The position numbers and the translations under genes are program-made. DNA of 64,000 bases from Eledone cirrhosa. Its lineage: Eukaryota. The stretch covers positions 233,368,001-233,432,000 of the forward strand of contig OZ024741.1 of NCBI GenBank assembly GCA_964016885.1. Direction: 5' to 3'. A model generated the notes under the pieces. It saw only the letters and a list, made by a program, of their open reading frames with translations, ran no database searches and was not told where the DNA came from. This document shows positions 1,903 through 61,035 of this stretch, in pieces (positions within the stretch are counted from its first letter, which is position 1; each line of letters opens with the position of its first letter).

Positions 1903-3035
1903 ATTAATGTCTGTTCAGGTTTGTATAGGATGAACATTTGTCCACATCTGTATAGGATTAACATCTATTCAGATCTGTATGGAATTAACATCTGTCCAGA
2001 TCTATAGGGGGTTCATTTCTGTCAAGATCTATATAGAGTTAACATCTGTCAAGATCTGTGTCGTGTTAATGCTTATTTAGATCTGTAGAGAGTTAACATC
2101 TACATATGTATATATAGGTCTGAAGAGTTTTTGATTCCAGAGTCGGGCCTGATCGATACAGATCGAACCTTGAGCTGATCAATAGCAAAACGCGCATCAC
2201 CAATCAATAAACGTAATGAAGGCTTAACAAATTGTCCTTGTATATTTACACTCTGTTTAACTCTAAACCTCGCTACAAATGGGAACCTAAACATCGAGTG
2301 ATCATCTGGGTGAACCTACAGTAACTCCACATTACACTCCCTGGATAATATATATATATATATATATAATTGTTTCTACTTTTGGCACAAGGCCAGCAAT
2401 TACCCAGTGTATTACTGGTACTTTATTTTATCGACCCCATAAGGATGAAAGGCAAAGTTAACCTCGGCGGGATTTGAACTCAGAATGGCAAGGGCCATAT
2501 ATAATGTATAATAAACAATACAATATAATTACCTCATTACCAGAGGTTTCCCAAATAAGACGAATACGAAAAACGTCCTCATTCGTTCGTCGGACAAGGC
2601 AAATTTTGCTCTGGTACTTACAGAGAGCACTCTTCACTCCTATGACTTTTTCAATTTTCAACGGAAACTTCAATACTTATATATATATATATATATATGT
2701 AGGGAAAAGAAATTTAAATGCAACTTGAGTCTTTTAAGAATATTTATTTAAGTAAATAAATAAATATTCTTAAAAGATTCCAGTTGCATTTTCAATTTCT
2801 TTTCCTCATACTTTCACCCGTATAGGACATCTTGTTTTTTTCTTTTGTTTTTTTTTATTAAAAAAACCCTCATTTTCTTATATATATATATATATATATA
2901 TGTGTGTGTGGTTAACACCTGTCAAGATCTAAATAGTGTTAATGTCTGTTCAGACCTGTATAGAATTAACGTTTATCCAGATCTGTAAAGAATTAACATA
3001 TGTCCAGATCTGTAAAGGCTTAATGTCTATTTAGG
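1903..3035. repeat. Degenerate 30-bp minisatellite (1903-2100 and 2911-3035) split by insertions
   Basis: TTAACATCTGTCCAGATCTGTATAGGA-like units on both sides of a hammerhead element, a SINE and a hairpin. Confidence 0.8.
2117..2201 (+). ncRNA. Degenerate hammerhead related to 4984-5077
   Basis: GGT CTGAAGA ...TTGAT..ATCAA.. AAAA CGCGC ATC ACC, then AATAAA; G12 is mutated. Shares CAGAGTC.G...GATC...CCTTGA.CTGATCA with the 4984 copy. Confidence 0.5.
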
Positions 3036-4375
3036 TTTAATGGCAATATATTCTCATTGAGAAATATTTTGCAGTTTTAGACGTTCTAAGTGGTTGTTTG
3101 GCTTGCTATAAATATCATTGAAATATCCACCATCTTAAACAGGAAAATACACATTTGATAATGTAGTTTTAGAAATCTTTAAACTGATGAGATGATCACT
3201 ATAGGAATGCTTTTGAACATAGGTTTTTTTTCAATCACAGTTGATTTAGGGCTAGTGAGCTTCATAGTCAAGTAACAGGAGTACTGCCTAGTGCATGAAA
3301 GTATAAACATGGAACAGAGGAGTATGATGAAGGAATATGTTTAGTTAAGGAGGGAAAGAACTGTGCCCCTATTTCTATTCACTGTTTAGTCAGGAAGGGA
3401 AAGACCTATGCAAACGTCCGTTTTCAAATGAGAGGAAGGTATTCTTGAACCATAGACCTGATCTGAATACTTGCAATAGAGTGGACTCTGTTAACGTCCC
3501 TCAAGAGCCTGCTACTGGTGTTATACTGGGCAATGGATTAAGTCTACAACCAAAGTAGGATTTGAACTGACAACACAATAGGCCAGAACAAATACCACAA
3601 TCTATCTCATCCAATGCTCTAATGATTCTGTCCAGCCACAGCTAAAGTCTGATATTTTGATTTGTTAACCCTGGAAAGGATGAAAGGGATAGTTGACCAT
3701 GGCAGGATTTGAATTCAGAGCGCTATAGAACAAATATTGCAAAGCATCATTCCCTACACTTTGCACTGAAACCATGACCTCCAGTGGTCAACTGGTGAGA
3801 AGAGACTGTATTGCATCCATTTTTTCCATTGCCTTCGTCAACCACATTTGATTCGTTGTATGATCTTAGCCATGCTGGACACTTTCAAATTAATATATAT
3901 AATATATATATTTAAGTTGTATCCTATATAACACACATGATTATGGTGAGATAATCTAGGTAAGTGTATGTGTGTGTATATATATATATAGCTGTTGTAA
4001 GGTTGCAATAAATGCGTCCATAGGCGGTATGCCGTTTGAGTACTCGATGCTCACGCGGAGCAGAGTATATTATTATAGACAACAAGGCATCAGTGATGCA
4101 TTAAAACACAATTTATTAACATATTACATATGTTTCTCCGACGATCAGCTCAAGGCAGGATCTATTATAGATCGAACCTGACTCTGCATTTGTGTGTGTA
4201 TGTATGTGTGCATACATGTGTGTGTATATATGGATGTATGCAAGTGTGTGTATCTATATGCATGTATGTGTGTCTGTATGTGCGTGTGTGAGTATATATA
4301 CATATGTGTGTGTGTATGTTTATACATATACATGTGTATGTATGTATGTACGCATGCATATATGTGTTTGTCTGT

Positions 4376-4724
4376 GGAGGCACATGGCTTAGTGGTTAGA
4401 GCATTGGCCTTGCAATCGAAAGGTTGTGAGTTCAATTCTCAGACCGGGTGATGTGTTGTTTCCTTGAGCAAGACACTTTATTTCACATTGCTCCAGTTTA
4501 CTCAGCTGTAGAAATGAGATGATAGGGACTGGGGTCCCTATCATTCCACTGCAAAGTGGTTGTGTAGGTGCCACGACAAAAAAGCACCCAGCACTCACTG
4601 TAAATGAGGTTGGTGTTAGGAAGGGCATCCGGCTGTAGAAATCAAGCCAGTATCAGTTCCCGTCCCACCCTTGCAAGCAGGGAAAAAGCGGACGTGAAAT
4701 GAAATGATGAATGATGATGATGAT
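4376..4724 (+). mobile_element. tRNA-derived SINE family A with RTE-type 3' tail
   Basis: A box TGGCTTAGTGG, B box GAGTTCAATTC; tail GCAAGCAGGGAAAA..GGACGT.AAATGATGATG shared with RTE LINEs. Confidence 0.88.
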
Positions 4725-58192: not shown

Positions 58193-60798
58193 ATGAATGT
58201 ATATATATATATATGTATATATATATATATATATATATATATATATATGTATATGTATATATATGTATATATATATATATATATGTATATATATATATAT
58301 ATATATATATATATATATATATATATGTATATATATATATATATATGTATATATATATATATATATATGTATATATATATATATATATGTGTATATATAT
58401 ATATGTATATATGTATATATATATATATATATGTGTATGTATATATATATATATGTATATATATATATATATGTGTATGTATATATATATATGTATATAT
58501 ATATATATATATATATATATATATATATGTATATATGTATATATATATATATATATGTGTATGTATATATATATATATGTATATATATATATATATATAT
58601 ATATATATATATATATGTACATATATATGTATGTGTGTATGTATATATATATATATTATAATAGATATATTATATATAAGACTTGTCTCTCGACGCAGAC
58701 AACCTGCCTGGCCCATATAAGCATAGAAAGCCTGTTTAACAGTGATGATGATGATCATCATCATCATCATCATCATCACTGTTTAACCTTTTCCCATACT
58801 TGCATGAGTCAGCCGGGTTGTCTGCGTCGAGAGACAAGTCTTGATGATGATCATCATCACCGTCTAGCGTTCATTTTTCCACGCTACCATGGGTTAGATG
58901 AGTTCTCCTCCTATGTGACAAGCCAGATCAGATGACCGTGTCTTGTTCATGCAGAACTGATTTTGGCTTGGTTTCTACAGCTAGATGCCCTTCCCAACAC
59001 CAACCACATTTACAGTGTGTGTTGGGAGTAATTTTCTTATGACACCTACACAACTACTTTACGGTATGAACTGGGGATGGGGAACTTAACAGGTGAGGTG
59101 TGGGGTATTGGGGAGTGGGTGGGGAAGGTAGGGGAAAGTGGTGCATACTGAATGTGTGTGTATATATATATATATATATATTCATATAAAAATGAGAAAA
59201 CTCATCGCTAGAAAAGCTATTAAAACAGCAAAATGCTGTCAATGACAGCAATGAGCAACAGTGCCACAGAGGCCAGTAGCCAGTAGTCATACCATTTTAA
59301 AATGCTGGATCATGCAACAGAAAAATATATCTTTCTGCTAGTATGATGTGTATGTGATAAAACAAGCAGCACAGATAGCAGAAAGAATACTCAAGCTGTA
59401 GTGTTCCACCACCAGATCACTCTTTGTCTGGCTGGCACTTTGCTGCAACCACAAGTCCCATCAGTAGTTCACAATAGGTTGTCAACATATTATATATATG
59501 AACCCATGCTAGCATGGAAGATGGACGTTAAACGAAGATGATGATGATGATGATGAATGTGTGTGTGAGGAATATATTGAAAGCAGTAGCACTTACATTG
59601 CATGATTCATAATATAGGTATAAATGAAGGCACACACAATATGTTTATGTAGAATACACATAGAGATTTTGCTATGATCTTGTCATAGCTATCTCAGTTA
59701 CTGTGTGAGAATGCCTGGCTCTAGTATTTTCAGGATTTATTATCCATCATCAGTGAGACTAGAATAAGTTATAGCTTATATACTTTGTGTGTATAAAACA
59801 TCTGCTGAAGAAGTTCATTTGCATACAGATGGGATTAGCAGTAGCAGTAACATAATGGGATTCATAATAGAAGTGTATATGGAGGCATATATAATATGTT
59901 TGTGGATGATAAACATATACATGACTAAACTACTCTTAAAAGTAGTGCCCCAGCATGGCCACAATCTAGTGACAGAAACCAGTAAAGGAATATATGTGTG
60001 TGTATGTATGTATATTTGTGTATGTCTGTTTGTATGTGTGTGTGTGTTTGTATGTATGTATGTATGTGTATGTATATACATGCATGTGTATGTGAGTGTG
60101 TGTGCCCAAACACAAATGAAAGCTGATGCAGACAGGAAAACATGAATTCTTTCATCTCAGTCTCTATTGTAACTAAATATAGTTTATATTTTGGTTATTT
60201 TAGCTTCACAGTTGTGTTTCTGTTATAGAATTCACCTTTCTTTTTTTTTCCTTGTTATGTCGTTTCAAACAAAAACTCAAATAGAACAATACCTGAAACC
60301 AAAATAGCGACATTAAAAATCCCCACTCTCCACCATTAGTGCTAATATATAACTCTATTGACCATTTTATTCTTCCATGTCTGTCTGTGAGTCTACAATG
60401 TGCAGCAATGCATTACATTCCCATGACTTGGCATTTAAAACAGAAAATAATGGTGATTAGCACACAATTGCATCTGCTAGAGCACCTGACTGTAACTCTA
60501 CATCACTGCAGCAGCCACTGAGTGACCAACTCAATATGTTGCTTTAACTAGCTGCCTTTAATGTACGTTGTCATGATGATGGTGGTAGTGGTAATTATAG
60601 AGATGATGGTGGTGGTAGTGATTTTGATGGTGATGGAGGTGATGGTGGTGGTGGTAATGATGACGATGGTGGTGATGGTAATGATGGAACATATGAGCAA
60701 AATGTGGTGCCTCATCCAGTCTAATCTTGAACTGTGAAGCCCCATCCAACCGAAGTGAGCAGGAAAAGCAGATATAAAATGATGATGATATATATATG

Positions 60799-61035
60799 TA
60801 GTTTACTAACTAGATAGCTATTTAATTGTCAAAGCTTTTTTGTCACACATTCTGTGACCTTCTCAATGACTATTCCTGCTCCTCTGTGTCTCTTCATTTT
60901 GAATTTGTTTAATTTGCTCTATCTTGTCTTAAAATAGAGAAGAGATACAAGAGAGCAAGAATAGTCATAGATAAGGTTACAAAATGTGTGATGAAAGGGC
61001 TTTGACGATTGAATAAACATCCAATTACTAAACTA
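60799..61035. mobile_element. Diverged fold-back Penelope-like element with two degenerate hammerheads (60828-60870 minus, 60964-61006 plus)
   Basis: Imperfect inverted arms of about 100 bp. Consensus GTCA TTGAKAA G-GTCACA-GAATG-TGTGAC GAAA..GC TT TGAC, then AATAAA. Confidence 0.6.

Follow-up and report, generated by a model that had tools for sequence, protein, structure and literature searches.

The stretch of 64,000 nucleotides from Eledone cirrhosa examined here (contig OZ024741.1, positions 233,368,001 to 233,432,000; the window) carries motifs that are very probably type I hammerhead ribozyme sequences, located at the 3' termini of numerous families of Penelope-like elements (PLEs), of Hydra and Neptune type, and of tandem retrozymes that likely borrow a Hydra-type enzyme for insertion into (TA)n. 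An earlier interpretation of the window (the sequence-only reading) had proposed about ten type I hammerhead loci; ten of its eleven sites fall in repeat families, and the one at 19733 found no support. Its broader proposal, several unrelated hammerhead families of PLE type arranged in fold-backs and inserted in (TA)n, agrees with our results, but it did not list the hammerhead at 2529-2602(-), nor the inverted arms located at 52269-52323, 20555-20650, 43553-43582 and 4118-4140.

Hammerhead motifs and their coding parents

The window was scanned with two descriptors. The strict one consisted of CTGANGA, stem II, GAAA, stem III, NUH and a stem I of at least 4 bp; the wider one also admitted U3-A8 and C4 cores and bulges. 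With the strict descriptor four cores were found (43781+, 52524+, 52318-, 5606-), compared to a mean of 0.013 and a maximum of 1 in 232 block dinucleotide shuffles, and with the wider descriptor six, compared to 0.019 in 698 shuffles. The excess over dinucleotide-shuffled sequence, on which the sequence-only reading had staked its case, therefore holds. The motifs show the conserved core, three helices and NUH of type I hammerheads, with self-cleavage as a prediction. Of the five sites that had been singled out as best formed, those at 52519, 5531 and 43777 are intact, as is the one at 4984, whose stem II is imperfect, and the one at 20961 has a U3-A8 core. The coordinates given earlier hold, and the cleavage sites predicted earlier (43866, 52568, 21049 and 5070) match ours. 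An Rfam scan of the window gave no hammerhead family among the matches listed (150 of 227), which were dominated by microsatellite and hairpin microRNA matches.

The best-formed and most abundant family, A, and a second family, F, lead to coding elements. Their features in the window are:

52120-52624, both strands: family A fold-back, two 5'-truncated 3' ends of a PLE assigned by its motifs to the Hydra clade, head to head; both arms end in TA-rich microsatellite
52519-52573, plus strand: family A type I hammerhead with CTGAAGA core and palindromic stem III; predicted cleavage after 52568; the hammerhead is the minimum-free-energy fold
52269-52323, minus strand: family A hammerhead of the inverted arm, found with the strict descriptor
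34388-34721, plus strand: family F, putative decayed 3' end of a Neptune-type PLE, with a minimal hammerhead at 34537-34573; 77% identity over 334 nt to locus L133

The inverted repeat of the family A fold-back measures 184 nt at 99% identity. Against a full-length element in one of the loci fetched from the genome (L021), the fold-back shows 97-98% identity, both at the element's 3' end and over its initial 111 nt, and the left arm of the fold-back bears a tail of ~100 nt that is the start of this element. The element itself is 4,097 bp long and ends in the family A hammerhead; a partial tandem copy and an inverted copy lie before it. Natural copies contain unbroken frames of 893-894 aa with the same hammerhead downstream, in which one open reading frame (ORF) encodes a reverse transcriptase (RT) followed by a C-terminal GIY-YIG endonuclease, with YRDD at 353 and YIG at 787-788. 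These frames carry the CxCx5C linker, CxxC and CxH; CCHH is absent, as judged by eye, and the Pfam match to GIY-YIG is weak and below cut-off. Among the four family A loci fetched, all motifs are present in L246 and L247, including RWK at 39 and DKT at 122, and some are missing in L248 and L249. As these are the motifs that define the Hydra clade (Craig et al., 2021, PMC8557442), and as a canonical hammerhead near the 3' end and insertion in (TA)n are both found, we regard family A, on its motifs and on a comparison with reference proteins by eye, as the 3' end of a Hydra-clade PLE. The unit exceeds the usual size of the clade (<3 kb) by a long RT-endonuclease linker and a 1.2-kb 3' untranslated region, but that size has been described as a tendency rather than a rule (PMC8557442). 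Counted genome-wide (3.0 Gb, 1,796 contigs) as exact patterns alongside control patterns, family A has 4,345 copies of a 36-mer (control 0), and its wider group 12,985 copies of a 17-mer (control 1).

At least four Hydra-clade families occur in this genome, and intact frames are present. Queries with Hydra endonucleases returned ~58,000 first-look candidates, 150 of which were scored per query. The second family, H2, is very young and lies outside the window; its unit measures 3,115 bp, and 781-aa open frames were found in 10 of 10 loci fetched (L212:1943-4285, with the hammerhead near 4859; also L211 and L213-L220). The H2 hammerhead has no canonical stem I; instead the strand 3' of the cleavage site pairs over 8 bp with a stretch inside the stem II loop region, and it may be a ribozyme that has been switched off or rearranged or that depends on splicing. 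Behind Hydra-type RT matches in L167 and L170 lie two more hammerhead families; families H2, H and J follow Hydra frames.

The intact minimal form of family F is present in 3,631 copies (exact 27-mer). One of 20 family F loci, L133, retains a GIY-YIG endonuclease with a CxxxxCxxC linker upstream of the hammerhead, which we take to be of Neptune type from its motifs. On this ground the site at 34535 appears to be where a Neptune-type PLE ends. Elsewhere in the genome PLEs of Poseidon type, Neptune type and a further type were also seen (L097:3175-5674 (-), L058:4698-6988 (-), L134), so that at least three to four PLE clades coexist.

The sequence-only reading had anticipated PLE parents with these termini; an intact coding parent exists for family A and an endonuclease upstream of family F, but none was found for families B, C, D and E, for which PLE ORFs near the copies were checked where possible. 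Such ORFs were rejected as parents because they were judged to be separate neighbouring insertions. The Poseidon-type ORF in L097 was likewise rejected as the parent of family E, since it has a hammerhead-like end of its own and is not joined to E. Family C shows a weak likeness to the end of a Hydra family (39 nt at 82%, E 0.01).

The abundance of the motifs was estimated from forty 10-kb stretches at round coordinates, 27 of them on the four largest contigs. This sample of 400 kb of unselected DNA yielded 23 motifs, of which 17 fell in its first half and 6 in its second; 130 shuffles gave 0.29, and decoy cores gave 0, 2 and 0 matches. The descriptor used was tuned on the families of the window and misses some real ones, such as B and H2. 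By extrapolation the genome is estimated to hold ~170,000 motifs (bootstrap 90,000-270,000); as a cross-check, the two matches to the family A group in the sample predict ~15,000, close to the 12,985 counted. The strict-motif density of the window, ~1 per 11 kb, is similar to that of the genome at large, 1 per 17 kb, and the window is typical of the genome rather than a hotspot. All fetched loci together yielded 182 distinct motifs in 25 clusters, 18 of which have at least two members. Across these 18 clusters the core, the NUH and a self-complementary stem III are kept while the stems differ; stem III is perfectly palindromic in 13 of the 18 representatives, and the stem II region is at least 36 nt long in ten (insertions of 36-95 nt).

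Retrozymes, the two-end rule and a proposed mode of copying

The remaining well-formed sites belong to families D, B, C and E:

5347-5733, minus strand: family D, part of one 457-bp unit of a non-coding tandem retrozyme, flanked on both sides by (TA)n; stops at the far terminus
5531-5611, minus strand: family D hammerhead with a 51-nt stem II; predicted cleavage at 5536; found with the strict descriptor
20331-21124, both strands: family B fold-back; 65 exact 31-mers; 582-bp non-coding unit, in tandem elsewhere
20961-21056, plus strand: family B hammerhead with the U3-A8 covariant core TTGATAA; predicted cleavage after 21049
20555-20650, minus strand: family B hammerhead in the inverted arm; far terminus
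4984-5077, plus strand: family C hammerhead, imperfect stem II, otherwise intact; predicted cleavage after 5070 (converted from L041 position 1531)
about 3990-4190, inverted: family C partner arm with tail; inverted arm listed at 4118-4140
43325-43927, both strands: family E fold-back containing a tandem duplication of 39 bp at 43609-43764; 926 exact 31-mers
43777-43870, plus strand: family E hammerhead with a long stem II; predicted cleavage after 43866
43553-43582: inverted arm within the family E fold-back

Family D does not code for protein, is arranged in tandem and has a type I hammerhead in every unit; in this respect it appears to match what Cervera and De la Pena (2020, PMC7229834) call a non-LTR retrozyme. 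An exact 26-mer of the family has 524 matches, many of them spaced by 457 bp, and the longest stop-free frame across three units is 69 aa. One array consists of 19 and 9 units of 457 bp head to head (L098 and L099; G000:C1:156424500-156441000), with units that differ by 0-3 bases and both outer ends in (TA)n; arrays of 2+2, 3, 4 and 5 units are scattered along the contig. A comparison with four sets of contigs showed only that the family is present and that the tandem joint occurs. The earlier claim that the families are non-autonomous and retrozyme-like stands only for the site at 5531 and probably for that at 20961, whose 582-bp unit fits the same reading; family A is instead the 5'-truncated end of a coding PLE, as family F appears to be. 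In family B the TTGATAA core is present in 28 of 31 distinct copies. Family C has 249 copies of an exact 21-mer. Among 14 family E copies, eight have the core CCGATGA (U4C) and two CTGAGGA, as in the window copy; the U4C core was also seen in a few other clusters. The four 39-bp tandem copies in the inverted arm of the family E fold-back (43609-43764) possibly reflect RT slippage during insertion.

What joins the retrozymes to the coding elements is the way their copies end. Insertions of eight families stop at (TA)n at either of two distances past the cleavage site, a near and a far end (for example A, ~54 and 153 nt; H2, 57 and 165; D, 81 and 190; B, 75 and 240). Fifty-three distinct head-to-head pairs were collected from these eight families: 40 combine a near and a far arm, two are near and near, and 11 have one unclassified arm, which places near with far in 40 of 42 classifiable pairs (p = 4e-10). 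The 19+9 array of family D, counted apart from these pairs, stops 81 and 191 nt past cleavage and hence also has one near and one far end. The occurrence of the two-end rule in retrozyme arrays ties the retrozyme to PLE-type insertion, and the mirror-image pattern of the insertions likely records how the elements are copied.

We propose that an RNA of the element, either a read-through tandem or a ribozyme-cut and circularised molecule, would bind the RT-endonuclease, which, probably as a dimer, would cut both strands within (TA)n. Two complementary DNAs (cDNAs) would then be primed, one per DNA end, from two fixed sites that are separated by 85-165 nt. As both starts need template that continues past the cleavage site into the next unit, the template would be an uncut tandem transcript or a circle; the partial tandem plus inverted copy in L021 supports this model. 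Usually both cDNAs would stop early and be joined at their 5' ends, giving short fold-backs with a ribozyme near each outer end, and the multi-unit arms of family D suggest repeated rounds on a circle. Selection on active master lineages likely keeps the cores and the pairing, while scattered copies decay. In a more specific form of this proposal, some 100,000-250,000 hammerhead motifs would stem from a burst of Hydra elements that are still intact, and the retrozyme arrays would be made by the Hydra enzyme copying circular RNA for many rounds, starting at either end of a single (TA)n break and using a different fixed site at each; we consider the chances of this form somewhat short of even. 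If true, one genome would hold a matched enzyme and non-coding template for studying how retrozymes move and how the inverted ends of PLEs form.

Several points weigh against our interpretation. The near and far windows behind the ratio of 40 in 42 were set on the same data that were counted. For families B, C, D and E, which lack a coding parent among the loci checked, the enzyme is deduced from the insertion pattern, and when D, B and E were set against four Hydra elements, the matches were short and AT-rich, with no meaningful shared sequence. Cleavage is predicted from sequence, and expression of the families is presumed. The unconstrained monomer fold differs from the hammerhead fold for D, E, C and the site at 2593; 8 of 9 Xenopus retrozyme dimers failed to cleave (Li et al., 2026, bioRxiv 10.64898/2026.07.22.740005); and the anole PLE inserted in vitro without need of ribozyme cleavage, with no RNA-seq reads ending at the cleavage site (Frangieh et al., 2024, PMC11167929). 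The mostly U4C core of family E and the missing canonical stem I of the young family H2 suggest that activity may not be required.

These last observations are what would be expected if the motifs were catalytically irrelevant relics or protein-binding folds, with the PLE enzyme recognising the three-way junction and cleavage having no role. We consider this unlikely, because the core, NUH and self-complementary stem III have been retained over the 18 clusters and because the U3-A8 swap in family B keeps the base pair needed for catalysis, a covariation also published for schistosome PLEs (PMC4209133). That the motifs are mere chance matches in AT-rich, hairpin-rich repeat DNA has practically no probability left: the site at 19733 without a family and the outer pairing made by inversion at 44224 are what it can account for, but the counts in the window and in the genome sample exceed those in shuffles, thousands of exact copies face 0-1 for the controls, and for ten of the eleven sites the idea is refuted.

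The sources of the elements raise two further alternatives. All the motifs might belong to non-autonomous, retrozyme-like families without any coding parent, as the sequence-only reading implied. Its observation that the window has no PLE ORF is borne out by tblastn, D and B are non-coding tandem units, and B, C, D and E have no parent that we found; yet an element with intact frames has family A at its end, family F lies downstream of an endonuclease of Neptune type, and H2, H and J follow Hydra frames, which refutes the idea for A and F and renders it very improbable as a general account. A stronger contender is that the family D arrays grew by local unequal crossover from a small seed made by a PLE enzyme, rather than by reverse transcription of a circle, in which case the two-end rule would cover the seed only. 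A satellite-birth model of this kind has been proposed (bioRxiv 10.64898/2026.07.22.740005), and the near-identical units fit both models. However, both arms of a single insertion are multimeric, with 19 and 9 units, and stop exactly at the near and far termini, and arrays of two to five units are dispersed over the contig; we therefore regard local crossover as a minority possibility, albeit one to be taken seriously.

Relation to known elements

Much of this is already known in kind: diverse PLE hammerheads, also in fold-backs, were described in 2014, a Hydra clade that has an octopus member in 2021, and retrozymes as PLE derivatives in 2020 and 2026; tails are published too. The hammerheads of metazoan PLEs (Cervera and De la Pena, 2014, PMC4209133) have, as here, a short palindromic helix III, an extra base 5' of stem II and the U3-A8 covariant, and they likewise occur as many families per genome, mostly as single truncated copies, with opposite-strand pairs 100-700 bp apart. 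The counts given there are ~2,000 for schistosome, 4,000 for coelacanth and 9,000 for Xenopus, obtained with a different descriptor from our estimate of ~170,000; published counts that we found range from thousands to ~14,000, also with other descriptors, which makes the comparison a rough one. No genome-wide hammerhead count for a cephalopod was found in the literature searched.

The closest relatives of family A are in the Hydra clade, including Hydra-1_Obim of Octopus bimaculoides, which shares the RT with C-terminal GIY-YIG, RWK, DKT, CxCx5C, CxxC and CxH, the canonical hammerhead near the 3' end, (TA)n targets, an inverted 5'-truncated arm and a tail at one end (PMC8557442). As published, the clade comprises few families under ~3 kb, and Hydra-1_Obim is described from four copy ends and with no pseudo-long terminal repeat (pLTR); E. 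cirrhosa has at least four families with units of 3.1-4.1 kb, partial tandems, intact frames and ~13,000 end copies of one group. Tails are ~85-165 nt here against 30-40 in published Hydra elements, and the family A hammerhead differs from that listed for Hydra-1_oBim in the supplement of the same paper. The sequence-only reading had linked (TA)n targeting to the Naiad clade. Naiads do share the (TA)n preference and inverted arms, but they have an N-terminal endonuclease and no canonical hammerhead, in contrast to family A, and are described as remnants in cephalopods; it is the Hydra clade that combines hammerheads with (TA)n targeting (PMC8557442).

Like family D, animal non-LTR retrozymes are AT-rich non-coding tandem units with one type I hammerhead each, found as monomers to long arrays (PMC7229834; bioRxiv 10.64898/2026.07.22.740005). 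The 457-bp unit is just over their published range of 150-450 bp. Retrozymes have been linked to PLEs by co-occurrence and pLTR similarity (same papers); family D arrays in addition lie head to head in (TA)n with two fixed termini like those of Hydra elements, an insertion signature not found in the parts of the retrozyme papers available to us. Anolis Poseidon (PMC11167929) and the inverted pLTR with tail of Penelope (Arkhipova et al., 2013, PMC3846280) offer a further parallel: a pair of fixed ends delimits a tail, one inverted arm bears it, and the targets are AT-rich. In vitro work on the anole element showed that the RT starts at two internal sites and that both strands are cut, but the start sites are adjacent and no strand difference was seen, whereas here they are 85-165 nt apart, with one per arm in 40 of 42 classifiable pairs. 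The near-strict split into one near and one far arm, or its presence in a retrozyme, was not found in the literature searched. The suggestion that the repertoire is undescribed in this lineage must therefore be narrowed: its kind is published, an octopus Hydra family included, and what is new are the families, their apparent scale, and a quantified two-end signature common to a retrozyme. PLE activity in O. vulgaris has been reported (PMC13282606); the main text of that repeat paper, as available, contains no mention of hammerhead, ribozyme or Hydra, and its supplement and repeat library may hold these families.

Three questions are treated as open in the literature consulted: how the tandem and inverted ends of PLEs are built, what the hammerhead is for, and which enzyme mobilises animal retrozymes. 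In this genome natural parts are at hand for testing them: intact Hydra enzymes, dated insertion junctions in the thousands, and a retrozyme whose junctions bear the same signature. Our data also suggest that a very large population of cephalopod ribozymes escapes annotation based on Rfam. This lineage edits adenosine to inosine heavily, and the many near-perfect fold-backs, some within genes, would be expected to yield long double-stranded RNA in it.

Lesser sites and the surroundings of the motifs

The sites that had been called minimal or degenerate at 2117, 28347, 34535 and 60964 are, as proposed, decayed copies of repeats, with better-formed relatives in each case except 28347. The site at 44224 stands as a repeat with core and stem II, although its outer pairing results from inversion. 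Apart from family F, these and the other minor sites are:

2529-2602, minus strand: further hammerhead with CCGACGA core and 9-bp stem I; repeat family in fold-backs
2117-2201, plus strand: decayed hammerhead copy in which GAAA reads AAAA; family related to C in the stem II interior
28349-28382, plus strand: decayed minimal hammerhead of an old repeat; two related loci, also decayed
44173-44289, both strands: small fold-back of the repeat centred on 44224; 82 matches in 29 fetched loci
60828-61006, both strands: decayed fold-back of family G; intact relatives have a CTGAAGA core and an 18-nt stem II
19733-19770, plus strand: hammerhead-like match without a family; passes the wider descriptor

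The families at 2117-2201 and 4984-5077 have a long stem II interior in common while their stems I and III are different, which suggests module swapping between families. The 22-mer at 19733 occurs twice in the 3.0 Gb, the other copy lacking stem I, and the site is probably a chance match or a lone relic. It was rejected as part of a short interspersed element (SINE), since the SINE begins at 19771 and the motif lies before it.

A host gene for a hillarin-like protein runs through part of the window:

30641-42774, plus strand: hillarin-like transglutaminase/KY-Ig gene, exons for the first 503 aa of ~1,297 aa; one exon 92% identical to the Octopus sinensis protein

Site 34535 lies inside an intron of this gene. 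No further exon was found in the next 10 kb, the next one being located more than 30 kb further on, and the sites past 42774 likely sit in a long later intron.

Fragments of RTs from long interspersed elements were found at 53227-54850, 57435-58190, 24876-25915 and 35052-35966, some interrupted by long (TA)-type microsatellites and one with a PHD-like finger after the RT. Perfect fold-backs and minisatellites of 38-121 bp without a hammerhead match lie at 1759-1876, 45737-45834, 48616-49217 and 33531-33886. The very abundant SINE-like repeat (19771-19850 and ~15 other places) often lies beside or inside (TA)n runs that also host hammerhead elements.

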